Positions 3,411 to 64,000 of a stretch of DNA of 64,000 nt are shown here, in pieces. The stretch's first letter is position 1, and the number at the start of each line of letters is the position of its first letter. The stretch covers positions 7,250 through 71,249 of the forward strand of contig JAHECY010000007.1 of assembly GCA_024641505.1 (NCBI GenBank), read 5' to 3'. A program made the position numbers and the translations under genes. A model generated the notes under the pieces. That model had not been told where the DNA came from and ran no database searches. It saw only the letters and a program-made list of their open reading frames with translations. The DNA is from Gammaproteobacteria bacterium (GTDB lineage: Bacteria; Pseudomonadota; Gammaproteobacteria; SG8-11).

Positions 3411-4355
3411 CTAGTGAACAATCATGTCGTCGCCCTTGCCGGCTTTTGGATCAGCATCGGGTTTGTTCATCAAAACTGTTATCGCACCACGCAATGCTGC
3501 ACTCATCCTATGATCAACAATAGCGTTATTGGTAGGTTTATCGGCCGGCGAAACAATATCGACGCTCACCGCTTCAGAAACAGCCAGACCGTAAGTAGCC
3601 ATATCAACCAGTTGATTTCGGGGATTGCCGTTGAGATAAACTCGATCCCAGATACCTGCTATTGGATGCAGCGCCACCGAATCATTGATATTTGCATTTA
3701 CGTAATGGATGCGTACGCGTTCACCGGGTTTGGATTGCAACACCAAGCTGGCATTCGGGTCATGCACGGGATCGTAGCGAAACATTTTGCCATTGATTAG
3801 CGAACCTTCCGATCCCTCGTTTTTCAGCATGGCCTTATAGTTGTCGGCATCCGGGAAGTACTGACCTTGCACCAATACATATTCACGATCCGGCTTGGGA
3901 AAGTTTTTACTGTAACCTTCCTTGGGGTCAACAATAATGACACCGTACATGCCACGCGCGATATGTTGCGCCATGACACTGGCACCACAGTGATACATCC
4001 ATACTCCCGCGCGCTTCGCCTTGAACTTGAAATGTTTGGTTTCACCAGGCTTTACCGGAGCAAACTCGCCCAACACATCGACCTCAGCCGCATGAAAATC
4101 CATGGCATGTGATTCTTTGTTGGTTTCGGGATTAATAAGCGTAAAATCAACAATATCGCCTTCCGTGACACGTACTACTTTACCGGGAATGGCACCATCG
4201 AAGGTCCATGCCGGGTATTGAGTACCTTTATTGTCGATTTCAATCATTTTTTCCATGGCCGTCATGGTGACTTCCACGGTCTTGGCCTGGACCACTTGTA
4301 TACTGGCCAGGCCCATCGCTAACGCAATGGTACTTACGGATAGTTTGTTATACAT
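3411..4355 (-). CDS. nirK: Copper-containing nitrite reductase (NirK-type two-domain cupredoxin)
   Basis: Signal peptide. Type-1 and type-2 copper ligand motifs HAMDFHAAE and YHCGASVMAQHIARGMYG. Last gene of a multicopper oxidase / cytochrome c / cytochrome c / nirK operon. Confidence 0.8.
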   Translation of the reverse strand: MYNKLSVSTIALAMGLASIQVVQAKTVEVTMTAMEKMIEIDNKGTQYPAWTFDGAIPGKVVRVTEGDIVDFTLINPETNKESHAMDFHAAEVDVLGEFAPVKPGETKHFKFKAKRAGVWMYHCGASVMAQHIARGMYGVIIVDPKEGYSKNFPKPDREYVLVQGQYFPDADNYKAMLKNEGSEGSLINGKMFRYDPVHDPNASLVLQSKPGERVRIHYVNANINDSVALHPIAGIWDRVYLNGNPRNQLVDMATYGLAVSEAVSVDIVSPADKPTNNAIVDHRMSAALRGAITVLMNKPDADPKAGKGDDMIVH

Positions 4356-4461
4356 AGCTTATCTCCCCCACCCTCAGGTGATGAATAGACATGAGTAGTA
4401 TCCCATCGAACACGCTCAATCGTCCGTAATTGAGGCTGTCAGCTATGCCGACAAATTCAAA

Positions 4462-4800
4462 TCAACCACACTGGCAAAGTTTTCTCAGATATTTGACTAA
4501 TTCATGAATCTCATCATCACTGAGAGTCGCACCCCAAGGCGGCATGAGCACTGATTTGTCGATGGCCAAGCCACCCTCCTTGATAACCTTGAACAAATCA
4601 GCGTCGCTACGCCCACCCATGGCTTTCGCGCTGGTATGATCACGGGGCTGCACGGACATGTCGCCCACATTCACACCCGCACCATTGCCTTGCATGCCAT
4701 GGCACTGCCAACAATAAGTTTTGTAATTGTCTTCCGCACTGGTCGCCGATACAGTTGATGAAACAAGTGCAAGCAGGAATAACAGGCTATTACTTTTCAT
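4462..4800 (-). CDS. Monohaem class I cytochrome c (NcgC-like)
   Basis: Signal peptide MKSNSLLFLLALVSS, single CWQCH haem site and a distal Met region (VLMPPWG). Start set at the internal Met at 4800 with a short overlap onto the upstream gene. Confidence 0.65.
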   Translation of the reverse strand: MKSNSLLFLLALVSSTVSATSAEDNYKTYCWQCHGMQGNGAGVNVGDMSVQPRDHTSAKAMGGRSDADLFKVIKEGGLAIDKSVLMPPWGATLSDDEIHELVKYLRKLCQCG

Positions 4801-5482
4801 CCGCGGCTCCCCTGGCCAACGCCACCAGATATTGCACGATCTTCTGAATATTCGGTTCCGCCGTGTGCTTGTTTGGCATCGGTATTTTAGGATTCCAGGC
4901 TTGCGGGTTGCGGATAAAACTGACGAGGTAATCTTCTTGCATACGCTTGGCGCCGGTATAAACTTCCGGACCTGACAGTCCACCAAAATCATGCTCTATC
5001 TGGTGACAGGCGAGACAACCATTGAACTTATCAAACACCATCTCGCCGGAGCTGAGGCTGATGTCTCCACCTTTGAAATCCCCTGCTGTTACCAGTGCCG
5101 ACAAGGCCGGTGGCTTTAGTTCGAGTAGCGCATCGCTTGCGGCTTTAGCATCGCTGGCGGCAAGGGCCGGATGCGGCGTCAATGTTTGCGTATCTGGAAC
5201 ATCCTGCTTGTCACCGGGTTTGATGTGTTGAAAATAGAGGTAACCCGCCGGGCGTAGCCGTTGCGGCTTGATCAGCCAGCTTTCCAGCCAGTCACGTTTA
5301 TATTTAATGCCCGCATAGAAAAGATCCGGGCCTTTGCGTTGCCACAATTCTGCCACCGTTTGCGCGGCGGGACCGCGCAGCGCGTGACAGCTTGCGCATT
5401 GTTGTTCGAGAATATCCTTACCATCGGCGGCTAACGCGGGTGCCGCAATCCATAAACCGATCAGCAACCAGTAGCGCTTCAT
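4790..5482 (-). CDS. Dihaem cytochrome c (NcgB-like)
   Basis: Signal peptide and two CxxCH sites (CASCH, CLACH). 230 aa. Confidence 0.7.
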   Translation of the reverse strand: MKRYWLLIGLWIAAPALAADGKDILEQQCASCHALRGPAAQTVAELWQRKGPDLFYAGIKYKRDWLESWLIKPQRLRPAGYLYFQHIKPGDKQDVPDTQTLTPHPALAASDAKAASDALLELKPPALSALVTAGDFKGGDISLSSGEMVFDKFNGCLACHQIEHDFGGLSGPEVYTGAKRMQEDYLVSFIRNPQAWNPKIPMPNKHTAEPNIQKIVQYLVALARGAADEK

Positions 5483-5484
5483 GA

Positions 5485-6606
5485 TTACTCCCTGTGGCGA
5501 CGCCGTTCTGCGGTCAACGGAGTACCCTGAAAACGCGGGCTGTTGAACAGGCCATAACCTTTGGTTATGGCCTCGCTAAAGAAAAAGTCGGGATCGAAAT
5601 TGACATCCTTCCATAGATACCAATCATCCACAGGGGTACCCGCATACTCCATCACGGTAATGGGACCACCGGGGAATTTACCGCGCGCCGTGACATGTTT
5701 GTCGACATGATCATGAAAAATAAAGCGCCCTTCTTTTTGGTTTGCCTCGATAATAGCGTCATACCGCTCGCCAGGACCGATGAGAATCGTGTCTACAGAA
5801 TATGGATTCGGCAACGGCAAGCCATCCTTATGAGTGATCAACATATCATGTCCATGAGAATGCATCGCGTGTATGCCGCCGCCTGCGCCGATAAAGCGCA
5901 CCCGCACCACATCGCCGGTCTTGATACGCAAGGGCTGGGTCATAGGAAAGGATTTGCCGTTGACTGAGAAATAGTCTTCGACATCACCAGGCGTAGAACC
6001 CGTGCCATATTTGTCGGCATTTGCGCTCTCCCAAGTGGACAGCATCATAATGGCCTCCTTGGTAACCCGCTTCTCTATGGGTAGTGGTTTCTTAGGATCA
6101 ACGATAATCGGCCCCCACATGCCCCGGATGCCAACATGTTCATTGACAGCGACATGGCAGTGATACCAAAGGCTGCCTATGCGATCCGCCTTCCAACTAT
6201 AAGTAAACGATTCCCCCGGTTCGATGGCCTTCTGCGTCACACCCGGGACACCATCGCTACGCCAGGAATTAGTTTGATACACTCCATGCCAATGAATGGT
6301 ATGTGACAACGAGGTGTTATTAGTCACTTGTACCACCACATCGTCACCCTCTTGCACATGGATAAGCGGACCGGGTACCTGTCCATTAAAGGCAAACACT
6401 TTATAACTGAGGTCAGCAGCGATCTGGATTTGCATTTCTTCGATAGTGAGCGCCATTTCGCGCTTTGCTGCTAATCCCGGAATAGCGACCAGCAATCCGC
6501 CCATCAATAGTAAAATACCGGCCAGGCGACGCTTATCTCTCGGTCGTCGACAGATTACAACTGATCGGGGTCTGTGTGAAATACATCCGCACCAACAGGA
6601 TTGCAT
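5485..6606 (-). CDS. Two-domain multicopper oxidase (blue copper oxidase, NcgA-like)
   Basis: Copper-binding HWHG and HCHVAVNEH...GMWG motifs. Tat-like RRLAGILLL N-terminus. GAGGAAA ribosome-binding site 9 nt before the ATG at 6606. Confidence 0.75.
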   Translation of the reverse strand: MQSCWCGCISHRPRSVVICRRPRDKRRLAGILLLMGGLLVAIPGLAAKREMALTIEEMQIQIAADLSYKVFAFNGQVPGPLIHVQEGDDVVVQVTNNTSLSHTIHWHGVYQTNSWRSDGVPGVTQKAIEPGESFTYSWKADRIGSLWYHCHVAVNEHVGIRGMWGPIIVDPKKPLPIEKRVTKEAIMMLSTWESANADKYGTGSTPGDVEDYFSVNGKSFPMTQPLRIKTGDVVRVRFIGAGGGIHAMHSHGHDMLITHKDGLPLPNPYSVDTILIGPGERYDAIIEANQKEGRFIFHDHVDKHVTARGKFPGGPITVMEYAGTPVDDWYLWKDVNFDPDFFFSEAITKGYGLFNSPRFQGTPLTAERRRHRE

Positions 6607-7149: not shown

Positions 7150-7929
7150 CTAGAATAAGTATGCATAACGAAACTGCCCTGATGACACGGCTTGCCGCTG
7201 CTTGAGCCCGGAACTGTATTCATACTCGAACCATTGATTTTTCAAACCCAAGGCAAACGCATTGCGGGAGTTTGGCGCAAATTGTACGTTAATCTCTGCA
7301 CCGCCCGCCAAACCGTCACCTTGCGCACCGTCGTTATCGCTGGTCTTCAATGGCAACAATCCCGCGGAGCCGAACAAACTCCAGCTTTCGGAAAAACTGT
7401 AGGTATAGTTGGCGCCAACACCGAGACCCATAATATTCGTTTTGTAATCGTCAGCCCACTTATTAGTGATAGTTTTAAGGTCTGCAAACAGCGATACCGA
7501 CCGCCAGACATAGTAGCCGGTTACCAAGTCGAGTTCAGTGCGGGCAATCGCGGTATCACCTTTGCGGTTGGTGGCGGTCGCACCATCCGGCCTGGCAAAA
7601 CCGGTCCCGGTAAAATTTATTTCGCCTGTTGCCGCGCTGCCACCAAGATAAAATCTCGCTTGTTGCCATTGCCAGGTCGCGCCCAACACATTACCTTCGC
7701 CGAAGGTGACTTTTTCGCCGTCGCTGCCCTGACCGCGTATTTCTGTGGTGAACCAGTTAAACTCCTGAAGTCGAATCCCGATACTGGTCCTGGCGGAATC
7801 CGCTGCAATAGCGTCACCGGCAACACCCGATGCAACGATCATCCACAACAAACGGCCCAGTCCCGGCATTTTTCCTCGGCCCATTGCTTTTATCGTATTG
7901 GTAGCAATACGTGCCACGATTGATTCCAC
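7150..7929 (-). CDS. Outer-membrane beta-barrel protein (MipA/OmpV-like size)
   Basis: Signal peptide (MPGLGRLLWMIVASGVAGDAIAADSA), alternating amphipathic strands and a C-terminal aromatic residue (…YAYLF). The start overlaps the upstream stop (GTG/TAG overlap), suggesting translational coupling. The true start may be an internal Met at about 7869-7884. Confidence 0.45.
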   Translation of the reverse strand: MESIVARIATNTIKAMGRGKMPGLGRLLWMIVASGVAGDAIAADSARTSIGIRLQEFNWFTTEIRGQGSDGEKVTFGEGNVLGATWQWQQARFYLGGSAATGEINFTGTGFARPDGATATNRKGDTAIARTELDLVTGYYVWRSVSLFADLKTITNKWADDYKTNIMGLGVGANYTYSFSESWSLFGSAGLLPLKTSDNDGAQGDGLAGGAEINVQFAPNSRNAFALGLKNQWFEYEYSSGLKQRQAVSSGQFRYAYLF

Positions 7930-8942
7930 TACAGCATCGGAAAAGGAATCATTGCGGCGCGCCTACCCGCAGGCAGCGCCGCTTCAGGTGCGGATCCGAC
8001 GTTTTGGCTGGAAGGTAATTTTACGGTTTCACTGTCACTGAAGTTACCGCCGGTGTCATGTTGGAAAATAAATTCGCCCAATTCATCACCTGCCCCCTGT
8101 AAAACACCGTTTTCCGGTACTTGATCGGTACTATTGGCAACGGCTTTCTCGACATTGTTGGATAGTTCGCTCAAGGTCATCATAGGCTTATGGTTGTTGG
8201 TCAATTCTGCGAGCAGAAAAAAGGTAAAGGGTGAATGCCCCGAATTCTGAAAACTGTCATCGACGAATTCAATACCACCGGCGGTTATAATCTGCACGCT
8301 TTTCTTGGCCGCGACTTTCCAGTAGTAGCGTTCCACTGCTGAATCTTGCCGCAATCCGCGCACGTCGGAACGCAACAAGCTGCCGCTGAAACAGGAATCG
8401 GCAATCAGTAAAGTATGTTGCGCCTTGCTGGCGATAATATTCATTTCATCGCGAATGATAGAATGTCGGATATAACTGCTGACATCAGTGCTATGGGCGT
8501 CCACCGGCACCCAGTAACCGCGCTGCGAGTCGCTTTCTAAAAATCCATGACCCGCATAGTAAACCAGAACACTATCGCCGCGCTGGACCTTGCGAGACAA
8601 ATCACCAAGCGCGTATAGAAGATCGCGGCGCTTCGCGTTTTCGAGCAACACTACATCGGTGAAACCATAACGGGATTTGAGAAGTTCGCCCATGGCGCGG
8701 GCACCCGTCACCGCGGTACGCAGGGATTGCCAATAATGGCCTGGATCCTGGTAGTCATCATTGCCTATGAGTAAGGCGCGGAAAGTTCCCAGCGTCAGTT
8801 TATCCTGAACTACGACGGCAGCTGACTCCAGATCAATACCACGATTTTCAGCGACACAGCAGGGCGTCAGTATCGTCAACGTCACCAGGTGTAAAATGAA
8901 ACGGGGCCATAGCATACAGTCTCTACTCACGACTAATAACAT
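7929..8942 (-). CDS. Secreted caspase-family (peptidase C14, orthocaspase-like) protein
   Basis: Caspase His/Cys dyad contexts YYAGHG and IADSCFSG. N-terminal signal peptide (MLWPRFILHLVTLTILTPCCVA). The ORF extends to 9002, but the start is placed at an internal Met. Confidence 0.6.
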   Translation of the reverse strand: MLLVVSRDCMLWPRFILHLVTLTILTPCCVAENRGIDLESAAVVVQDKLTLGTFRALLIGNDDYQDPGHYWQSLRTAVTGARAMGELLKSRYGFTDVVLLENAKRRDLLYALGDLSRKVQRGDSVLVYYAGHGFLESDSQRGYWVPVDAHSTDVSSYIRHSIIRDEMNIIASKAQHTLLIADSCFSGSLLRSDVRGLRQDSAVERYYWKVAAKKSVQIITAGGIEFVDDSFQNSGHSPFTFFLLAELTNNHKPMMTLSELSNNVEKAVANSTDQVPENGVLQGAGDELGEFIFQHDTGGNFSDSETVKLPSSQNVGSAPEAALPAGRRAAMIPFPML

Positions 8943-9433
8943 TATTATGCGACCCGGCGCTGGATTGCCGACCACGTTGACGGTCGACCTTCTGGAATCC
9001 AACTATGCGGGAACTCTCTTGTGCCTTGCGGCCTGCCACGTCGCACCCGCCCTGGGCATCCGACACCAAGTATTGCGCGCAATTATCGCACTGCGCCACC
9101 CGATTTGCCAATATCAATCTAGATCCTTAAGGGCTTTATCGATTTAAATATGTCCGCATCAGGCAATTAGTCTATCAGCTTCAAATGACACCCCATGGCT
9201 TGCCGCCTCATGTGCGGCAAGCAAATGGAATTATTAATGTGGAAAACGCAAAGATGACTCGAGGACAACGCCATATCGCTACATCAAACACACTCCGGCG
9301 GATACCATCCGACACCAATCCACAGAATCAGGGCAATCGTTATGCACAAATACCACTGGACATTATTTGTAAACATGATGATCACTGGTACCGCATTTGC
9401 AGGTGACACCACTTGTGCACCTCCGCGGAAGTC

Positions 9434-21778: not shown

Positions 21779-22351
21779 CTAGTGTTTGCCGTCATAAGCA
21801 GCAGCAAGTTTCTCGAACAATTTTTGACTCATTCCAGTGATGGCCAGGAATTTGTCTTTAACTTCCGTTATCGACGCCTGATACGAGGCTTGCATGATAA
21901 TCAAGGAAAATCCCAGACTGGCATTCAATGCCTGAATCATGGCCACGCAGGTTTTGGCGTCATTACCGTATACCTGCGGCACCAGCCGGTAAAGCTCATT
22001 CGCTATCAAGGTAGTGCCACCTGCCATGAATTCAGCGGGTAAATCGACTTGCACATGCACACATCCCACGGTATACATCTGCGCCACATAGGACACATCG
22101 TATCTTCCAGTGACGACCCTTTGCAGCCAATTCACATGAGTTTTTTTCAGATGCTCCACCCTGCCCTCAATATACGGTAAAGCATTGGGAATTTTCTGCA
22201 GCGTGCCATAAAACTTGTCAGTTATCTCGACCAGATACGGCTCGAGACGTTTACCTTCAGCGGCTATCAGTGCCTCCCTTTCCGGGGTGAGATCCGCGAA
22301 TACCTTGGCATAAAGTCCCAGCGCACTATACTCATTATCGGTCAATTCCAC
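21779..22351 (-). CDS. Stand-alone sensor globin (protoglobin / globin-coupled-sensor type haem domain)
   Basis: Colinear similarity to the HemAT sensor globin. The distal Tyr context ITDKFYGTL matches VDAFYKNL. The proximal His context VGCVHVQVDLPAEFMAGG matches IASIHLRIGLLPKWYMGAF. Start set at a GTG with a GGGAGGAAG ribosome-binding site after the upstream stop (the ORF extends to 22444). Confidence 0.6.
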   Translation of the reverse strand: MELTDNEYSALGLYAKVFADLTPEREALIAAEGKRLEPYLVEITDKFYGTLQKIPNALPYIEGRVEHLKKTHVNWLQRVVTGRYDVSYVAQMYTVGCVHVQVDLPAEFMAGGTTLIANELYRLVPQVYGNDAKTCVAMIQALNASLGFSLIIMQASYQASITEVKDKFLAITGMSQKLFEKLAAAYDGKH

Positions 22352-22374
22352 CGCTTCCTCCCGCTTTTCATCGT

Positions 22375-23016
22375 CTAATGAGTTGTATGATAGCGCACAC
22401 TTAATACCCAAATCAGTTGCATCAACGCCGGCTGATTCAGGCAAGGCATGCCTTCCACTGCCAACACGAATCGATGTTCACCAATATAAAGCGGCCAAAA
22501 ACCGATCTGACTATTGCCGGCGGCATCCACCAATGCCCACGCACTGGTCGACATATCCAGATCTCGGGTTAGCAGGTTCATATGGCGCTCTTGAAGAGAC
22601 GCCAGGTCCGCTGTAAGCGCGGACAGTTCCTCGACATACTCTTGATCAAATCCGTGACCGGAGATGTAAAATCCCTGGTAATCCGCCAAAAGCACCTTAC
22701 CATTTCCGGACAAAGGGATAAGCAGATCAGGCAGCAACGCCTCTAGATTACCCTGAGGCGCATATTGCACTTCGGGTGTACCTTGCACCCATCCCAGTTT
22801 CTGCAACCGTTTTAGCAGTACCGTGGCTTCGGTTTCATCGTCAATTCCTGACCACGTCTGCACGCCTTCAAGCGTCAACAATGGACTGCTGGCGCATTGC
22901 ATCAGTGACTGCAAAAGTCTTTGAGGCGGGGCCGATGATGGCCTGGACACCGCGTAGTACGCGCCGGAAGGCGTGGGCAGGAGATAAAGATCTTCGAGGA
23001 TACGGCGTTGCTCCAT
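22375..23016 (-). CDS. Hypothetical protein. The C-terminal half may be a roadblock/longin-like fold.
   Basis: 213 aa, no recognisable motif. 25 bp from the upstream gene and overlapping or adjacent to the globin gene. Confidence 0.4.
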   Translation of the reverse strand: MEQRRILEDLYLLPTPSGAYYAVSRPSSAPPQRLLQSLMQCASSPLLTLEGVQTWSGIDDETEATVLLKRLQKLGWVQGTPEVQYAPQGNLEALLPDLLIPLSGNGKVLLADYQGFYISGHGFDQEYVEELSALTADLASLQERHMNLLTRDLDMSTSAWALVDAAGNSQIGFWPLYIGEHRFVLAVEGMPCLNQPALMQLIWVLSVRYHTTH

Positions 23017-23041
23017 ACAAATATTATTTTTGCCTCCAGGT

Positions 23042-24529
23042 TTACGACTGACCCTTTATCCGTGTATACAACCGTTTCAGAATACCACCGGCTCTATCGC
23101 TGGACAGGTCATCATCCACCATGATTTCCGGTTCTTCCACTGTCAGCACCCTCGCGGACACTGCGACATTCTCGTCACCGCGTGTTTGTCCAGGCCTGTG
23201 CAGGTTGACTGATTTGACAAAGCCCAATGCTTTAGCCGCGCTGTAAAAACTGAATATATCCTGCTGCGAGACATCTAGCAACTGCAATGTCTGAACTAAA
23301 GAGCAGGGTTGCTGGTGCCATAATTCGGCGATCGTCCGCAGGCTGTCGCCAAGACCAAAGCGTTCCGCGTCAGGCATGTGTTTCAAATAAAATTGACCCG
23401 TGATATCTGTACCTATAGGGATGCGACCATGGGCGGCGCGCATAGCCAACTCCCATAATACAATATCCCAGTCCAACAGGACGCCGGACGCCTCGGTTAT
23501 CATTTGGTGTCGGGAGTTGGACAATATTGAAATTTTGATATTGTCGTTATTGATCGGTACCCGGCCCACTGCGTACAGGGCACGCTCATTATGCTCGATC
23601 AGCACCTTCCGATCATCATATAAAATGATCAGTGACTGTACCTGGGCTTCCAGCAATACATTCTTCTTACTGGTATATGATAAATTGAGCGCCTTCTTCA
23701 GATAGCCCTGCAAGTAATATTCAGGATTATAAATCACGTGAACGAGATCGCTGGAATTCGGCAATCCGACCGCAGGATGCACATTTCCCGTGGACTCGTG
23801 TTCCACCGGCGCTTTTTCTTCCACATCGACTTTGCTACTTTGGGCCGAGCTTGACGCCAAAGCAGGTGTCAGTCCGGTGAGCCCAATTTGTTCCGGCGCT
23901 GGCGTTGTGTTCACGAAAATTCGCGGCTGCGCCGTTGGCGCCACCGTTTCGGCTGAAGGCAGCGCAACTTCCGCACCGGCCAACTTCGCCATCACGCCGG
24001 GCAGTTCCGCTACCTGCAATTCATTTTCCAATATCGGAACAGTCACACCCCAGCCGCCCACTGAAGCAACACTTCTAGGGGGTGGCGTACCTGTCGCGCC
24101 CCGCACTCGTCTTTGAGACTGAACGGTACTCTGCTTCGAGGGGCTACCCTCGAAATTAATGATATTTGATGCCGATTTTTGTTCTCCGGCACGCAACTGA
24201 GTGGCGCGCGCGGCCTGCGCATCGTGAAGTGCGCGTTTCAGCAGCTCGGGTTCCACTGGCTTACGCAAAACCATCGCGTGCTCGGAGCTAAAAGCATGGA
24301 CCGATTGCACAATGGAGGGTCTTCCGGGAAATTGTCGTTGAATACGCGTCCATTCCGCCTGCCCGGTCACTCCATCCAGGTCTACCAAATTGATATCGGC
24401 GTCACCGTTTTCCGCAATTGCATATTTTCCAGCACAAGGTCCTTTGAAAAAAATACGCAGGATATTGATATTCTGCTGGCTCATCCCGATGGCCGTAACC
24501 CGCACCTGCTGATTGTTATCACGCATCAT
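23042..24529 (-). CDS. Hypothetical protein with a degenerate receiver-like N-terminal domain, a Pro/Ala/Ser-rich linker and an unknown ~250-aa C-terminal domain
   Basis: REC-like features: the strand-3 Asp context INLVDLDG and the alpha5 signature VLRKPVEPELLKRAL are present, but the N-terminal acidic pair is absent. A low-complexity linker follows. Confidence 0.45.
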   Translation of the reverse strand: MMRDNNQQVRVTAIGMSQQNINILRIFFKGPCAGKYAIAENGDADINLVDLDGVTGQAEWTRIQRQFPGRPSIVQSVHAFSSEHAMVLRKPVEPELLKRALHDAQAARATQLRAGEQKSASNIINFEGSPSKQSTVQSQRRVRGATGTPPPRSVASVGGWGVTVPILENELQVAELPGVMAKLAGAEVALPSAETVAPTAQPRIFVNTTPAPEQIGLTGLTPALASSSAQSSKVDVEEKAPVEHESTGNVHPAVGLPNSSDLVHVIYNPEYYLQGYLKKALNLSYTSKKNVLLEAQVQSLIILYDDRKVLIEHNERALYAVGRVPINNDNIKISILSNSRHQMITEASGVLLDWDIVLWELAMRAAHGRIPIGTDITGQFYLKHMPDAERFGLGDSLRTIAELWHQQPCSLVQTLQLLDVSQQDIFSFYSAAKALGFVKSVNLHRPGQTRGDENVAVSARVLTVEEPEIMVDDDLSSDRAGGILKRLYTRIKGQS

Positions 24530-53335: not shown

Positions 53336-55732
53336 ATGAAAAGAATGTTATTCAACGCGACTCAACCGGAAGAGTTGCGCGTGGCCATGGTGGACGGCCA
53401 GAAACTGTACGATTTAGATATCGAATCCGCAGGCAAACAAAAGAAAAAATCCAATATCTACAAAGGCAAGATCACCCGCATTGAGCCCAGCCTGGAAGCG
53501 GCATTTGTTGATTATGGCGCCGAACGCCATGGCTTCCTCCCGTTAAAAGAAGTCGCCAAAGCCTACTTCGACCCTGCGGTCGACCTTGGTGGTGGCCGCC
53601 TCAATATCAAAGAGGCGCTCAAGGAAGGTCAGGAAATGATCATCCAGGTGGACAAGGAGGAACGGGGTAATAAGGGTGCCGCCCTCACTACCTTTATCAG
53701 TCTGGCCGGTCGCTACCTGGTGCTCATGCCCAATAACCCACGGGCGGGCGGCGTCTCACGTAAAATCCTTGGCGAAGACCGTAGCGAAACCCGCGATGTT
53801 TTGACCAGCTTGAACATGCCCCAGGGTATGGGCGTCATCGTGCGCACTGCGGGCGTCGGCAAGAGCACCGAAGAGCTGCAGTGGGATCTGGACTACCTGT
53901 TACACCTTTGGGATGCCATCGAAAAAGCTTCCGCGGACAAACCCGCCCCCTGCCTGATATATCAGGAAAGTAACATTATAATTCGGGCTATCCGTGATTA
54001 CCTGCGTAAAGACATTACGGAAATCCTGATTGACCATAAAGAAATTTACGAACAAGCCTGTGATTTTATGCGCATGGTCATGCCTCATAACTTGCATAAA
54101 ATCAAACTCTATCAGGACAATATCGCACTGTTCACGCGGTTTCAGATCGAAAGCCAAATCGAATCCGCGTTTAATCGGGAAGTACAACTGCCCTCCGGCG
54201 GGGCCATCGTCATCGACCATACCGAGGCGTTGACTTCGATCGATATCAATTCCGCGCGTGCCACCAAAGGCAGCGACATTGAAGAAACCGCACTCAACAC
54301 TAATGTGGAAGCCGCCGACGAAATTGCCCGTCAATTACGTCTGCGCGACCTGGGCGGTCTGATCGTCATCGATTTTATCGATATGGTGTCGACCAAGAAC
54401 CAACGGGAAGTTGAAAATCAACTGCGCGAAGCGTTGAAAATGGACCGGGCTCGGGTACAAATCGGGCGCATTTCCCGTTTCGGACTCCTGGAAATGTCTC
54501 GGCAGCGCCTGCGGCCATCATTAGGGGAAGCCAGCCAGGTAGTTTGTCCACGTTGTAAAGGCCAGGGACATATTCGTCATACCAATTCTTTGGCACTCTC
54601 GATCCTGCGTTTAATGGAAGAGGAAGCGCTGAAAGAAAATACCGGTCGGGTATTGGTGCAGTTACCTTTGTCGGTCGCCACCTTCCTCCTCAATGAGAAA
54701 CGTAAGGTAATCGCGGATATCGAAGCGCGTCAGCAAGTCGAAATGCTGATCGTGCCTAACCCCTCTTATGAAACACCGCATTTTACCGTGCAACGTATTC
54801 GTGCCAGTGAAATGTCCGAACAAGCCGGTGTCGCCAGTTTTGATCTGGTCACCACACCGGAAGATTCACAGGAAATCGACGTGGATATGGTGCGCGTGGC
54901 ACCTGCCGAAGAACCGGTGCTCAAGAATATTGCGCCACCAATGCCGGCACCTCCGCCTGCACCACCAAAGGCGGAACCTCAGAAACCAGGTCTGTTTATA
55001 CGTATCTTCCAGGCATTGTTTGGCAGTGGCAGTCCCGAGCACACGAGCGCCACCAGCCGCAATCGAAACAAACAATCGCCGCCGCGCGGTGGGCGTAGTG
55101 AGGCGCCGCGTACGTCAAAAAGCAGCAGGCCTCCCCAGACGGCAGCGGCAGCGCAACCAACTCAACCATCACAACAGCAACCCACAGGTCGCGGGGGCAA
55201 ACAACGGGGTGGCCGTCGTCGTGGTGGTGGTTCCCGGGGCGGACCCCGTACCGGTGGAGCACCGGGAGGGACCGGACCGGATCAGGGCCGCACCGATCAA
55301 GGGGGACGCTCGGGTCAGGGCAATCGCGGTGATCTGCAAGGCACGGGAAACTCGCAACCATCCCAACGGGGAAGCGGCAACCGGGAACAAAACAGCGATC
55401 GCAACAGCCAGCGCGGTGGTGAACAGAATCCTCAGGGCCAGAGAACGACCGGTTCCGAAGGCAGGGGTAACCGGGATCGTGACCGCAACCATGGTCCACG
55501 ACCAAGCTCCAGAGGTGGTGCGCCGGGGGATGCACCGTCACAGGGTCCACAGAGCCATGACAGCGCCTCCTCCCCGCAGCCTCCTCGTGAGGACGGGTCG
55601 GACAACCGACCACGGGATGTGGCGACGCCTCCACAGCAACAGAACGACACGCGGGTCAGTGATAATTCGCAGTCCGAAAAGCCTCAGGAAGCAAAAATCG
55701 CCGTATCTGTGGACTCATCATCACAAGATTGA
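53336..55732 (+). CDS. rne: Ribonuclease E with an RGG/Pro-rich disordered C-terminal scaffold
   Basis: N-terminal S1 / 5'-sensor / DNase-I-like catalytic region ([17 protein letters not shown]..., Zn-link CPRCKGQG). The C-terminus is low-complexity and Arg/Gly/Gln-rich. Confidence 0.85.
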
Positions 55733-59256: not shown

Positions 59257-59568
59257 CTATGCCTTAATTTCCTTTAGATAGGCGCAATCCTCGGATTCGA
59301 TAAACGCATCGATACCTTCTTCTTCAATTGCCTGGAATGCGGCATCCACCGCCAAGCGCGGGCTGGTAAAATAATCCGTCCAATGAGATCGCAGCCCCTT
59401 CCCACTATCTACGACCAGTTGCCAACCACCAATATATTCATCTCCGCTCAGTTCTGAAAGATCGTGTTCATAGGTAATATTGATATAAACGGTCTTGGCG
59501 TTCTGAGTGAATTCCAGGTATACGCCATCTTCATGATTTGCAACGGTATCGTTCATGATAATCTCCAT
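59257..59568 (-). CDS. Hypothetical acidic protein
   Basis: 103-aa ORF with no recognisable family. Confidence 0.3.
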   Translation of the reverse strand: MEIIMNDTVANHEDGVYLEFTQNAKTVYINITYEHDLSELSGDEYIGGWQLVVDSGKGLRSHWTDYFTSPRLAVDAAFQAIEEEGIDAFIESEDCAYLKEIKA

Positions 59569-59669: not shown

Positions 59670-59999
59670 CTATTTTTTCGGCAACGTACGCACAAAAGCG
59701 TAGCCGGTCTCAATCCATTTTATCAGATCGGTATCCGAGGAAAAACCGGGCGCCGCAACATAAATAAACCCTTTCAATGGTTTACCGGTGAAATCCATTT
59801 TTCTGGCGTAAGGTAAATTGAGCACATACTCGTATTGCTCCGGGCCGACACGCACCATCAATTCTTCTCTGACCACACCCACGCACATATTACCGTAAAC
59901 CATGAATGCCAAACCGCCAAACATCTTACGCTCAACAACGCCAGCGATATCCTGCATGGCTTCGCGTACTCTCTGGGCTACTCCCGCATCATATGCCAT
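59670..59999 (-). CDS. TfoX N-terminal domain protein
   Basis: RKMFGGLAFMVYGNMCVGV... pattern of the TfoX_N family. Start at the internal Met (the ORF extends to 60146). Confidence 0.55.
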   Translation of the reverse strand: MAYDAGVAQRVREAMQDIAGVVERKMFGGLAFMVYGNMCVGVVREELMVRVGPEQYEYVLNLPYARKMDFTGKPLKGFIYVAAPGFSSDTDLIKWIETGYAFVRTLPKK

Positions 60000-60211: not shown

Positions 60212-61456
60212 TTACGCAGTCTCTAGCAATAGAGACTTTACGTCACTCCAGGATGTAATATTCTTGCGCGCGAGCCGATGTACCCGTTGATGCGCGGCCA
60301 CAGCGGGCTGCCGCGTGTGCTGTATACGCTGCGCATACTGCATGGCACGCGCGTAGTTTTTCTCAATATGCTCGTAATATTTCGCCAGATTCTCCAGACT
60401 CACATCGCAGGATTTTTGTTCCGCCAGGTGCTGCCAGATGGCAATCGCCTCCGGCCATTGTTGTTTCTGCTTGAAAAGTCGTGCCAAATCCAGAAAACCT
60501 TCGTGATCCAACGTATCGCGTGATTCGGAAAGTTTTTCCAGTGCCAGATCTTCCTGCTGATCTTTTACATAGTGGCGCGCGATGGCACGGGTATTGGCAC
60601 CGAATTGGGTAGGATCCTGGAACACCGCCTGCAATCTTACCAGTAACGCCAATAACGACAACACATCCCAATAATGGTGTTGCAACAATGCGCGCAAACG
60701 GCTGCTGTCACCAAAACGTATGAATTCCTGCCATACTCGCGGCGCCTCGGACCCGGGCAAATCATCGAGACGATTAAAAGCCAGTAACTTACGTTCCGCA
60801 CTTTTCAACGAACAGTCCCGCCAGCGCAATGCATAGGCACGCCGAGTATGGTGTAACAGATCGATATGTCGTGAAAACTCCATGGGGTCCAGACGCAACA
60901 ACCGTTGACGGGATTCCATCAGCGGCATATCGAAAGATTTACCGTTAAAACTCACCAGCACACTGTCATCAGCAAGCCAGGCGCACGCATGCTGATACAA
61001 CGCAGCCTCTCCGGCGTAGCCCGTCAGCAGATATTGACGTAACACAAATTCACTGTCGATGATCCGCGCAATTCCCAGCAAGAAAACCACCGTGCCGCTG
61101 CCTCCCGATAACCCATTGGTTTCAGTATCAAGAAAAACAAGCTGTTCAACGGGTGTAGTTGCCAATGATTTTGAGAACAACGATAAATCAATCTCATTAA
61201 CACCCTGGAGCGAAACATCACCATGGCGACGGGTCAACGGCACACGCTTCTCAATCAAAAGGCAATGATCGCCCAGCCACTCCCCGCCTAAAAATTGATC
61301 AAGGCCGTCATGGCGCACCATCGGCATGGACATCAAACGTGCGCGTTGCGCAATGCGTTGAATGCGTTGCCGCAAACCAGCCGCATCGGCAGTCGGTCGA
61401 ATTTCCATATTTACCTTGCCATGCAAGGCATACAAGCGAGTCTTAATTGATGACAT
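60212..61456 (-). CDS. DEDD-type exonuclease with a C-terminal TPR-like region (MrfB/YprB-like)
   Basis: RNase-H-like exonuclease motif FLDTETNGLSGG and a helical repeat C-terminus. Overlaps the upstream helicase gene. Confidence 0.55.
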   Translation of the reverse strand: MSSIKTRLYALHGKVNMEIRPTADAAGLRQRIQRIAQRARLMSMPMVRHDGLDQFLGGEWLGDHCLLIEKRVPLTRRHGDVSLQGVNEIDLSLFSKSLATTPVEQLVFLDTETNGLSGGSGTVVFLLGIARIIDSEFVLRQYLLTGYAGEAALYQHACAWLADDSVLVSFNGKSFDMPLMESRQRLLRLDPMEFSRHIDLLHHTRRAYALRWRDCSLKSAERKLLAFNRLDDLPGSEAPRVWQEFIRFGDSSRLRALLQHHYWDVLSLLALLVRLQAVFQDPTQFGANTRAIARHYVKDQQEDLALEKLSESRDTLDHEGFLDLARLFKQKQQWPEAIAIWQHLAEQKSCDVSLENLAKYYEHIEKNYARAMQYAQRIQHTRQPAVAAHQRVHRLARKNITSWSDVKSLLLETA

Positions 61457-63869
61457 AGCAATTTTCCTTTGGTTGTAGCAACGTGAGCACGAGCAGAGCA
61501 TTTTGTTTTGGTGCGTGATCCGGATCTTGAGGGTCATGTAATATGGGGCCGATACATGCCGGACACCCGATACGGCAAGCGCAGGCAGCGATCAATTGTT
61601 GCGCCCGTTCTACCACGGTAAGGCGTAAATCATACAGCGGCACTGACAACCCTACCCCGCCCGGGTAGTTGTCATAAAGGAACAATGCCGGCGAAAATTG
61701 CTGCTTCAGATCGCGAACATCCATGGCATCGCCGGAGAAGTTCCGCAGGCTGCCACGTCCGTTACTGCCGAGAGTCACAAACCAGGCGGCGTCGCCATTG
61801 CCGACCGCGCGACCAAGATCGTGCGGCTCCGACATCAGCAGCAAGGCGGCAATATGGTGCATGGCATAGGCCGCGCCAAGAAAACCATCCAGTGCGTGCC
61901 AACGATTTGGAAAATGCTGGTCCAGAAGACTGGCACCGATCTGCCACCAAACAGCCGTGGTGTGCATTTCATGATCCGGCAAATTCACCTTGCCGTAGCC
62001 GACATTCTCATGACTGTAATAGCGAATCTTCTTATACCCGGAAACACGTCGTACCACGTGTACCTCGCCGCGCACGACCCCACTGTTTTCTTGACTGCTG
62101 GTCTCAAAACGATCAAGAATTTTTAGGCGTGTATAGTCAATGGCATCTGTATAATAATCCGCGCGAGTACGCGTTACAAAAGCCTTGCGCCCTTCCCAAT
62201 CCAGTTTCTCAACCTGCCACGGCTGGGCTTGGATCATATATATCGCGCCTTCATACAGAGTCAGAGCCGCGCCACTGTAATCGACTTCGGCGATAACCGT
62301 CTGCTGACCACCCGTGGTGTCGATGACCACGAAATTACCATTGGCCACGGATCGCAGGCTGACGCTGTTCGCCGGATAAGCATCGGCCATCCAGTGCCAG
62401 GTATCGCCTTCCCGGTGAATGAGCCCTTCTTCCTCAAGATAGGCGAGAAATTCGAGCAGAGACTCCTTGCCGAAGGACTCACCACGAGTAAAAGGTAACT
62501 CAAACGCCGCGCATCTAATGTGGTCGAGAAGAATCAAGAGTTGGTCCGCGTGAATGTGCGCATGTTCCGGTGACGCATCAAAAAAATATTGCGGATGACG
62601 AATGACGAACTGGTCAAGCGGTAGACTGGTGGCAACTAAAACACCCAGTGAGGGACGATGCCTGCGCCCGGCCCGACCCAAACGCTGCCAGGTACCCGCG
62701 ATGGTACCGGGATAACCATTGAGTATGCACACATCCAGCGCTCCGATGTCCACTCCCAGCTCTAAAGCGGAGGTTGCCACGACACAATCCAGCGCGCCCT
62801 TGCGTAATCGCTGCTCCGTGCCACGCCGCTCCGTCGGCAGGTAACCGCCGCGATAGGCCCTGACGCGCTCCGGCTTACGCGGGTCTTTATCGAAATGATC
62901 CTTGAGATACTTGGTAATTACTTCCACTGCCAAGCGGGATTGCGCAAACACAATGCATTTCAAGCCGGTCTGGATCGCCCGTTTCACAACCCGGTGCGTC
63001 TGCGAACGTGCGGACGCGCGAATTCCTAAATCGGCATTGACCACCGGAGGATTCCAAAACAGAATATGTTTCGGTCCGCGCGGAGCGCCGCTGTCCGTAA
63101 TGGCCGTGACCGCATCATCCAGCAACGCTGTAGCCAGTTCCTGCGGATTGGCAATGGTCGCGGAACACAGAATAAATTGCGGCGCACTGCCATAGAAACT
63201 GCAAATTCTTTTCAAACGACGTATCACATTCGCCATGTGGGACCCGAACACGCCCCGGTAAATGTGCATTTCATCAATTACCACGTAACGCAGATTCTGA
63301 AAGAACTGAGCCCATTTTGTATGATGCGGCAATATCCCCTGATGCAGCATATCCGGATTAGACACCACAATATCACCATGCATGCGCACCGCTTTGCGCG
63401 CATCGCCCGGAGTATCGCCATCAAAGGTATGCGCCCTGATACCCAGCCCACCCGCTTTATTAAGCTCGATAAGTTCCGCCACTTGATCCTGTGCTAAGGC
63501 CTTGGTCGGAAATAAATACAAGGCCTTTGCGGAATCCGACAACACTGACTGCAACACCGGCAGGTTGTAGCACAATGTCTTTCCGGATGCCGTGGGCGTT
63601 ACGACGACCGTATTTGCACCCTGTTGCGCGAGATCCCAGGCACGCGCCTGATGAGAGTAGAGGGTCTGGATCCCCTTGTGATCAAGTGCCGTCACTAGAC
63701 GGGAATCCAGGCCCTCAGGCAAAGGCGCATAGGTCCCCGTAACCGCCGGCAATTCCATGGCACCGGTAATACAGCTCGCAAACCCTTGGGATAAGCCATA
63801 AACTACTGATTCAATGGCATTATCTTGAGGTTCACAAATTTCCTGCGCGTTCTTAAGGGCCATGGGCAT
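61443..63869 (-). CDS. DEAD/DEAH-box (Ski2-like) helicase with a C-terminal DUF1998 zinc-ribbon domain (MrfA/YprA-like)
   Basis: Walker A TASGKT, DEMH box, helicase C motifs and a C-terminal four-Cys cluster CACRIGCPACIGP. 808 aa. Confidence 0.75.
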   Translation of the reverse strand: MPMALKNAQEICEPQDNAIESVVYGLSQGFASCITGAMELPAVTGTYAPLPEGLDSRLVTALDHKGIQTLYSHQARAWDLAQQGANTVVVTPTASGKTLCYNLPVLQSVLSDSAKALYLFPTKALAQDQVAELIELNKAGGLGIRAHTFDGDTPGDARKAVRMHGDIVVSNPDMLHQGILPHHTKWAQFFQNLRYVVIDEMHIYRGVFGSHMANVIRRLKRICSFYGSAPQFILCSATIANPQELATALLDDAVTAITDSGAPRGPKHILFWNPPVVNADLGIRASARSQTHRVVKRAIQTGLKCIVFAQSRLAVEVITKYLKDHFDKDPRKPERVRAYRGGYLPTERRGTEQRLRKGALDCVVATSALELGVDIGALDVCILNGYPGTIAGTWQRLGRAGRRHRPSLGVLVATSLPLDQFVIRHPQYFFDASPEHAHIHADQLLILLDHIRCAAFELPFTRGESFGKESLLEFLAYLEEEGLIHREGDTWHWMADAYPANSVSLRSVANGNFVVIDTTGGQQTVIAEVDYSGAALTLYEGAIYMIQAQPWQVEKLDWEGRKAFVTRTRADYYTDAIDYTRLKILDRFETSSQENSGVVRGEVHVVRRVSGYKKIRYYSHENVGYGKVNLPDHEMHTTAVWWQIGASLLDQHFPNRWHALDGFLGAAYAMHHIAALLLMSEPHDLGRAVGNGDAAWFVTLGSNGRGSLRNFSGDAMDVRDLKQQFSPALFLYDNYPGGVGLSVPLYDLRLTVVERAQQLIAACACRIGCPACIGPILHDPQDPDHAPKQNALLVLTLLQPKENCYVIN

Positions 63870-63880
63870 GTAAAAATCCA

Positions 63881-63928
63881 GTTCTCTTTATGTTCTCTAT
63901 GTGCTAGAGTATAGAACATAAAGAGAAC
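63881..63928. promoter_or_regulatory. Perfect 15-bp inverted repeat GTTCTCTTTATGTTC ...18 bp... GAACATAAAGAGAAC. Each arm is a GTTC-N7-GTTC direct repeat. Candidate LexA/repressor operators in the divergent promoter.
   Basis: Read directly from the sequence. Located between the helicase start (63869, minus) and the lexA-like start (63943, plus). Confidence 0.4.
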
Positions 63929-63942
63929 AAAAGGAAAGACCC

Positions 63943-64000
63943 ATGATTAAAAAAAATCTGACGCGCCGGCAGCAGGAAATCTCTGACTACCTGCAAAGCC
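63943..64000 (+). CDS. 5' end of a LexA-like repressor gene (partial)
   Basis: N-terminus MIKKNLTRRQQEISDYLQS resembles the LexA wHTH start (M.. LT.RQ.E...I...). Only 19 codons are in the window. Confidence 0.35.
   Translation, partial: MIKKNLTRRQQEISDYLQS

Follow-up and report, generated by a model that had tools for sequence, protein, structure and literature searches.

A 64,000-nucleotide (nt) stretch of contig JAHECY010000007.1 (positions 7,250 to 71,249; referred to here in its entirety as the window) ends in a gene for the SOS repressor LexA, which is transcribed divergently from two overlapping genes related to mrfA and mrfB of Bacillus subtilis, coding for a helicase and an exonuclease. 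We propose that lexA and the mrfA-mrfB repair operon form a LexA-controlled divergon, in which a 74-bp control region with a pair of GTTC-N7-GTTC boxes serves both transcription units, and we put the probability of this reading at roughly 0.78. The genes and the region that separates them are as follows.

60212..61456, minus strand: mrfB-like DEDDh 3'-5' exonuclease, 414 aa (from Pfam RNase_H_2, a match to 8UN9, catalytic residues, and a gene call)
61443..63869, minus strand: mrfA-like superfamily 2 (SF2) DExH helicase, 808 aa (from the list of open reading frames [ORFs], Pfam, a match to 6ZNP, and motifs)
63870..63943, no strand: divergent intergenic region, 74 bp, with both promoters and the operator
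63944..64000, plus strand: 5' end of lexA, first 19 codons (full 211-aa gene at L001:2723-3358, minus strand)

The window end cuts lexA after these 19 codons, and Logan contig L001 (12,949 bp), which is identical to the window across all 9,649 shared nucleotides, extends the gene to 211 aa. An earlier note on this DNA had read the divergent gene as LexA-like and had staked its reading on a LexA or S24-family repressor being encoded there; the completed protein contains both a LexA_DNA_bind (PF01726) and a Peptidase_S24 (PF00717) domain, and scores 158.8 bits against NCBIfam TIGR00498 (lexA), for which the cut-off is 110.95. Its cleavage site (A97-G98, within AAG) and the residues S131 and K169 align with A84-G85, S119, and K156 of Escherichia coli LexA, and are invariant in the alignment. 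Because both domains are present, the TIGR00498 score exceeds its cut-off, and the cleavage site and Ser/Lys dyad align with those of E. coli, the divergent gene is, judged by its sequence, a bona fide LexA.

The window LexA shares 35% identity with the E. coli protein; its identity to Sedimenticola and Thiolapillus LexA, and to many uncultured sequences, is 63-79%. In a rough neighbor-joining tree it clusters with Sedimenticola, Thiodiazotropha, Methylococcales, and a Burkholderiales metagenome-assembled genome (MAG), with a Thiohalomonadales MAG and two others as the sister group, and with E. coli and Roseicyclus LexA outside the clade. By its place in this tree, and by its identity of about 37-38% to the alphaproteobacterial LexA of Roseicyclus, it falls outside the alphaproteobacterial LexA lineage, and on these comparisons it is a member of a separate gamma-/betaproteobacterial clade. 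Throughout the clade, the recognition helix follows the pattern S-R-G-S-M/L-H-K-x-I-Q-A-L, where E. coli has S-P-N-A-A-E-E-H-L-K-A-L; the alphaproteobacterial helix (S-K-S-G-I-H-R-L-I-T-A-L) resembles that of the clade more than the E. coli helix does.

The 808-aa helicase has a RecA1/RecA2 core, a winged helix, and a zinc-binding domain with four cysteines, and matches the Pfam families DEAD, Helicase_C, WHD_HRQ1, and MZB (the MrfA Zn-binding domain, alias DUF1998). The motifs TASGKT93, DEMH199, SAT236, and QRLGRAGR395 are in place, the four cysteines (C763/C765/C769/C772) lie in a CACRIGCPAC motif at residues 763-772, and the B. subtilis YprA/MrfA structure (PDB 6ZNP) matches over aa 47-685 with an E value of 7.6e-217. 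A DExH SF2 core, a C-terminal domain, and four conserved cysteines are the features by which MrfA/YprA homologues are recognized (Burby & Simmons), and all three are found in the window helicase. For the exonuclease, the longest mechanical ORF spans 60212-61537 (441 aa); we placed the start at the ATG at 61456, to which both the gene called on an identical public contig and homologues of 366-431 aa point, so that the protein has 414 aa and its gene overlaps the end of the helicase gene by 14 nt. The product matches Pfam RNase_H_2 (1e-36) and the MrfB exonuclease core (PDB 8UN9; E value, 6.7e-36), and its DEDDh residues D110, E112, D176, H260, and D264 align with D107, E109, D172, H258, and D262 of B. 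subtilis MrfB, all five of which are essential in that protein.

These matches bear out what the earlier note had claimed of the operon, namely an 808-aa DEXH helicase with a C-terminal four-Cys DUF1998 domain overlapping a DEDD exonuclease, together making a MrfAB (YprAB)-like pair. It had also given the exonuclease a helical-repeat tail, and this part stands less firmly. A single-sequence AlphaFold model is all-helical at residues 282-413, but with low confidence (mean predicted local distance difference test score [pLDDT], 35), and the matches of the C-terminal ~130 residues to the tetratricopeptide repeat (TPR) families TPR_6, TPR_7, and TPR_14 are sub-threshold (E values, 0.015-2.5). A helical, possibly TPR-like C-terminal tail is thus weakly supported, plausible but not proven.

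The control region measures 74 bp, rather than the 73 bp first reported, and contains the following features.

63881..63895, plus strand: LexA box 1 (predicted), GTTCTCTTTATGTTC, GTTC-N7-GTTC, conserved in orthologous loci
63914..63928, minus strand: LexA box 2 (predicted), identical GTTCTCTTTATGTTC, conserved in orthologous loci
63908..63913, minus strand: candidate -10 hexamer TATACT of the mrfAB promoter, directly after box 2
63905..63910, plus strand: weak candidate -10 hexamer TAGAGT of the lexA promoter, from comparison with loci L082 and L091
63898..63903, plus strand: alternative candidate -10 of lexA, TATGTG
63931..63938, plus strand: Shine-Dalgarno-like AAGGAAAG of lexA

The two boxes are the perfect 15-nt arms of an inverted repeat that the earlier note had pointed out, which extends to 19 nt at 95%; among inverted repeats with loops of up to 60 nt, none in the window is longer. 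That each arm has the form of an alphaproteobacterial LexA box also holds, both arms being exact and the same motif being found in the published alphaproteobacterial box, and there is likewise no CTGT-N8-ACAG box of the gamma-/betaproteobacterial type in the intergenic region. No GAAC-N4-GTTC palindrome is present in the operator. Box 1 is in the mrfA leader, 11 nt ahead of the mrfA start codon, where it would also occupy the -35/-10 spacer of the presumed lexA promoter, and box 2 abuts the candidate mrfA -10 and is in the lexA leader; the boxes stand 48 and 15 nt, respectively, upstream of the lexA ATG, a position in the repressor's own promoter at which LexA would be expected to bind. By itself, GTTC-N7-GTTC is about as frequent in the window as expected by chance (two matches, both in the operator, versus 1.9 expected), and the significance of the operator therefore rests on the length of the repeat, on weight-matrix scores, and above all on conservation across genomes. 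A 21-nt weight matrix (consensus, aatGTTCTCtatTtGTTCTaT) built from related promoters, in which there are 26 exact arms, gives 26.9 bits at box 1 and 28.9 bits at box 2, versus 13.2 bits at the next best site in the window.

Nearly all of the clade lexA promoters examined bear GTTC-N7-GTTC boxes. They are found upstream of lexA in Sedimenticola MAGs, Thiodiazotropha, a Thiohalomonadales MAG, a Burkholderiales MAG, and several metagenome contigs, and further in two uncultured Gammaproteobacteria and five Methylococcales or methylotroph-like MAGs; of the two boxes in the lexA promoter of the cultured Sedimenticola thiotaurini SIP-G1, one is exact and the other differs at a single position. Four exact half-sites are present in 13 loci, the GTTC columns are invariant with maximal information, and the extended consensus is GTTCTC-N4-T-GTTCT. 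We note that a third, degenerate repeat (GTTCTC-N5-GTTGTC) lies by the lexA start codon, 22 bp from the lexA-proximal box, in three loci (L005:419-439, L006:5980-6000, and L085:2513-2533), where it scores 14.5-16 bits, with a counterpart, GTTCTCCCTGTGTTGCC, by the lexA start in L086.

The mrfAB operon follows these boxes across relatives, as seen in a comparison of 17 mrfA loci (the window and 16 homologues at about 68-83% identity). In 13 of the 17, lexA is the divergent neighbor of mrfA, and at least one box lies between the two genes in every one of these 13, the box of L096 being weak (11.9 bits). Sedimenticola locus L089 has mrfAB without an adjoining lexA, yet both boxes are present (25.0 and 22.0 bits, with an 18-bp inner spacer). 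L094 (Ga0224496_10000004, a 366-kb Gammaproteobacteria contig with an mrfA 70% identical and an RNase E 75% identical to those of the window) also has mrfAB without a lexA neighbor; no GTTC box is present in its mrfAB promoter, and a canonical CTGT-N8-ACAG box, CTGTACATATAAACAG (L094:3936-3951), stands beside a TATAAT, 50 bp upstream of the ATG. Because L094 has the canonical box and the clade loci have GTTC-N7-GTTC, mrfAB is SOS-boxed under both LexA types, and it looks like a conserved SOS target under either. The presence of mrfAB behind a LexA box of either dialect is, we believe, the strongest computational evidence available for damage inducibility, and DNA damage very probably switches mrfAB on.

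Two observations concern the surroundings of these loci. In L096, a Y-family polymerase gene (L096:7700-8881; Pfam IMS and IMS_C; dinB-like) is directly downstream of mrfB on the same strand, and the lexA-mrfAB locus there may be an extended SOS operon. In L089, CTGTAAAGGTTTACAG (positions 323-338) lies between divergently transcribed genes of the Sedimenticola chromosome and precedes a small gene with no assigned function by 76 bp; it could be either a chance occurrence or a hint of a second LexA dialect in that genome.

Several findings weigh against LexA control of the divergon. Two of the mrfA loci (L087 and L090) have no recognizable box of either type. Within the 64 kb of the window there are no other SOS genes and no further box above 13.2 bits, and tblastn with E. 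coli RecA over 97 loci found recA in a single, unrelated Acidimicrobiia locus. A simple sigma-70 consensus scan gave no full promoter in the intergenic region, and the overlap of boxes and promoters described below consequently rests on the conserved TATACT/TATAAT hexamers only. Finally, the MrfAB papers in the literature that we searched are silent on LexA and on any SOS control of the operon. That literature contained no paper linking LexA with MrfAB, yprA, DUF1998, or the Methylococcales.

In one alternative, the adjoining LexA is a second, cassette-dedicated paralogue controlling only itself and mrfAB, and a canonical CTGT-N8-ACAG LexA encoded elsewhere runs the main SOS response. A weight-matrix scan of the window and about 20 clade loci found strong boxes at lexA and mrfA promoters only, with no further box in the flanks. 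Such a paralogue would also account for the tight linkage of lexA and mrfAB across divergent hosts (the 13 of 17 loci include a Burkholderiales MAG), and the canonical box of L094 implies that both LexA types circulate in the group. However, LexA of the same clade is found unlinked to mrfAB, and with boxes in its own promoter, in Sedimenticola and in the five Methylococcales or methylotroph-like MAGs (which include Methylobacter, Methylomarinum, and Methylomicrobium), and these unlinked proteins are named simply LexA in their sources. Moreover, the unlinked mrfAB of Sedimenticola is still boxed, giving the regulon at least two separate operators, and the lack of a close plasmid homologue (identity, <46%) gives no sign of a mobile lexA-mrfAB cassette. 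We therefore regard a dedicated paralogue as unlikely, although it is the most serious competitor of the LexA-controlled divergon. The broader proposition, that the group as a whole (Sedimenticolaceae, Methylococcales, Thiohalomonadales relatives, and some Burkholderiales) runs its SOS response through a distinct GTTC-N7-GTTC LexA with the lexA-mrfAB divergon as its conserved core, we advance tentatively and at somewhat less than even odds; a genome-wide GTTC-N7-GTTC regulon is unproven, the SOS promoters covered here being those of lexA and mrfAB.

Because helicases of the YprA family also have relatives in the DISARM, Druantia, and Dpd systems, the pair could instead be an anti-phage module that LexA couples to phage-induced damage. 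The PADLOC models BrxH, SngC, DruE, DrmA, and DpdF/J do match the helicase, but they cover its generic core only, and neither the exonuclease nor LexA matches any model. Partner genes specific to those systems are absent from the neighborhood, which consists of lexA, mrfB, a TfoX_N gene, and a P-type ATPase gene, the similarity to MrfA is far stronger, and a survey of the YprA family places MrfB-associated helicases in a DNA-repair branch. A defense role is thus quite improbable.

The arrangement of the boxes points to a site read by protein. Only the window and its closest relative have the same N7 spacer in both arms; in 11 of 13 related operators the two spacers differ (with 1-6 of 7 positions matching). 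The arms are 11-19 bp apart in the 13 loci with four exact half-sites; in one Sedimenticola promoter, they are 7 bp apart and the outer half-site is degenerate. Invariant half-sites amid drifting spacers and distances are the signature of a protein site. Five promoters (L048, L069, L084, L091, and L093) have a single arm, in one case located exactly between a TTGACT -35 and a TATGCT -10, which suggests that the arm is the functional unit. We also considered a single long palindrome, GTTC-N18-GAAC, under one dimer, and rejected it on account of the variable spacing and the single-arm promoters. That the repeat serves another regulator as a palindrome, or forms a DNA or RNA hairpin (leader structure or terminator), is scarcely credible: the window arms are identical down to their spacers and could form a stem of 19 bp, but only the GTTC tetranucleotides and not the pairing are conserved among relatives, spacing varies and single arms occur, scans found neither a terminator-like site in the intergenic region or after mrfB nor an Rfam family in the window, and the motif tracks the lexA promoters of one LexA clade across orders. 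An operator of independent protein-binding boxes, and not a conserved hairpin or one long palindrome, fits these patterns.

Direct repeats also occur at the lexA promoters of other lineages. In Patescibacteria and Vicinamibacterales/Acidobacteriota (L014-L023, L025, L029-L031, and similar loci), a TTCG-N7-TT(C/T)G repeat directly follows a TTGAC -35, which is the same promoter position as that of the GTTC box in single-arm gammaproteobacterial promoters, and alphaproteobacterial lexA loci have GAAC-N7-GAAC-N7-GAAC. Because loci of all three groups show it, the direct-repeat mode appears to be common to a broad set of LexA lineages.

In the LexA-controlled divergon that we favor, the layout of the orthologous control regions suggests how repression could work. 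Reading toward mrfA, a box is followed by TATACT or TATAAT directly after its inner GTTC, then by ~12 bp, the second box, 5-12 nt, and the ATG; the adjacency of GTTC and the hexamer is kept in L082, L085, L086, L005, L006, and L091, and in several relatives a mirror-image TATAAT for lexA abuts the other box. This conserved layout would put each box in the -35/-10 spacer of one promoter and within the first ~25 transcribed nt of the other, with the two -10 elements in the central spacer between the boxes. One LexA dimer could bind each box, two in all, shutting both promoters together, and lexA would be autoregulated through the shared boxes. Upon DNA damage, RecA on single-stranded DNA would be expected, as in other members of the family, to stimulate LexA self-cleavage at Ala97-Gly98 via Ser131/Lys169; cleaved LexA would vacate the boxes, both promoters would be released, and the helicase and exonuclease would be made, with the 14-nt overlap perhaps coupling MrfB translation to MrfA synthesis. 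For mitomycin C monoadducts in B. subtilis, 3'-5' unwinding by MrfA and strand degradation by MrfB have been proposed. By homology, the window MrfA may unwind 3'-5' from the lesion and MrfB may degrade the displaced strand, and the pair might thus excise bulky adducts in the way that B. subtilis MrfAB does mitomycin C lesions. We also note that the outer half-site beside mrfA reads GGAGAAC and is 5-10 nt from the ATG in most orthologues (AGAGAAC, 11 nt away, at 63881-63887 in the window), and that by its sequence and position it may double as a Shine-Dalgarno/ribosome-binding site.

The remainder of the window is ordinary chromosome, with plsX-fabHDG-fabF-pabB-mltG-holB-tatD and rne. No database protein is more than 78% identical to its RNase E, whose named relatives (Thiohalomonadales, Chromatiales, and Sulfurivermis) mark the host as an uncultured gammaproteobacterium. 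Three RNase E proteins (P0243, P0244, and P0270) that bear the name of a Nostocales cyanobacterium, 'Kaarinaea lacus', are 71-76% identical to the window RNase E; their probable source is contigs of contaminants or of associated heterotrophs in that assembly. The last ~270 residues of the window RNase E (54900-55732, plus strand) are of extremely low complexity and rich in Arg, Gly, Gln, Ser, and Pro, and spurious long ORFs in other frames overlap this stretch. Downstream of mrfB, beyond 212 bp in which no terminator-like site was found, two further genes lie on its strand: a 109-aa TfoX_N-domain gene (59670-59999, minus strand) and a 99-aa ORF with no family assigned (59257-59556, minus strand), neither of which is conserved downstream of mrfB in relatives. 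Elsewhere, all on the minus strand, are a cluster at 3411-6606 encoding a multicopper oxidase (373 aa), a di-heme cytochrome c (230 aa), and a second, two-domain copper oxidase (314 aa), which we take to resemble the nirK-associated clusters of nitrifiers; at 7150-9002, a 357-aa caspase-domain (Peptidase_C14) protein adjoining a 259-aa protein without a Pfam match, upstream of a hybrid histidine kinase; and at 21779-24529, a protoglobin-domain protein followed by 213- and 495-aa proteins without Pfam matches, among GAF/histidine-kinase genes. The window has one CTGT-N8-ACAG match, at 22611, which we rejected as a LexA box; it has a GC-rich spacer and lies inside an ORF, and about one such match is expected by chance.

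LexA repression and autoregulation, the GTTC-N7-GTTC box, and MrfAB are each already known. In the literature that we searched, however, three features appear not to have been described: a gamma-/betaproteobacterial LexA clade using a direct-repeat box, a conserved lexA-mrfAB divergon in which two oppositely oriented boxes flank a pair of -10 elements, and MrfAB as a conserved SOS target under two types of box. If the broader proposition above is correct, MrfAB would be a core SOS function outside the Firmicutes, and, since close relatives keep mrfAB under the canonical box, the operon would be a natural example of a target that stays in a regulon across a swap of both repressor and motif. The short list of lineages with a changed LexA motif would gain a gamma/beta clade, and the change is toward the direct-repeat form that is thought typical of the Alphaproteobacteria, which bears on the exchange or convergence of repressor-operator pairs. 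To our knowledge, MrfAB have so far been known only from B. subtilis genetics and from structures; LexA control under two box types would provide them with a regulatory context, and argues that many environmental proteobacteria use the pair for damage-inducible excision in general rather than as a niche defense against mitomycin producers. The predictions are directly testable in the cultured S. thiotaurini SIP-G1.

One of the known systems closest to that of the window is the documented alphaproteobacterial LexA box (PMC8565304; PMC3323433; PMC9578287), which in Caulobacter crescentus and Rhodobacter sphaeroides has a half-site and a 7-nt spacing identical to those of the window boxes. The two systems also share the location of boxes in the repressor's own promoter and a recognition helix of the pattern S-[RK]-x-x-[ILM]-H-[KR]. 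In contrast to the alphaproteobacterial system, the host here is gammaproteobacterial and its LexA is on a separate branch, the consensus is the extended one given above, and the boxes form an inverted pair bracketing two divergent -10 elements. Compared with B. subtilis MrfAB, the window operon has the same helicase-then-exonuclease order, domains, and catalytic and Zn-binding residues, but its genes overlap by 14 nt, the TPR tail of MrfB is not confirmed in the window protein, and, unlike the B. subtilis operon as described, it is under LexA boxes and beside lexA. The B. subtilis pathway protects against mitomycin C adducts independently of UvrABC, and distant homologues, such as that of Pseudomonas aeruginosa, failed to complement B. 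subtilis mutants.

Two further systems invite comparison. The first is the non-canonical betaproteobacterial LexA of Sideroxydans lithotrophicus (the subject of Sanchez-Alberola et al. 2015, J Bacteriol 197:2622), which is reported to read GAACGaaCGTTC, a 12-bp palindrome of the Gram-positive, GAAC-N4-GTTC type; that repressor would likewise be a proteobacterial LexA with a GAAC/GTTC-based motif in place of CTGT-N8-ACAG, although the half-sites in the window are direct repeats with 7-nt spacing and not a palindrome. The second is the damage-inducible lexA2-imuA-imuB-dnaE2 cassette of Pseudomonas putida and Xanthomonas, in which, as is proposed for the window, a lexA gene sits together with the repair or tolerance genes that it represses and the box differs from the canonical one of the host. 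The window locus differs from these cassettes in that its cargo is mrfAB rather than a mutagenesis cassette, and in that repressor and cargo are divergent rather than co-transcribed.

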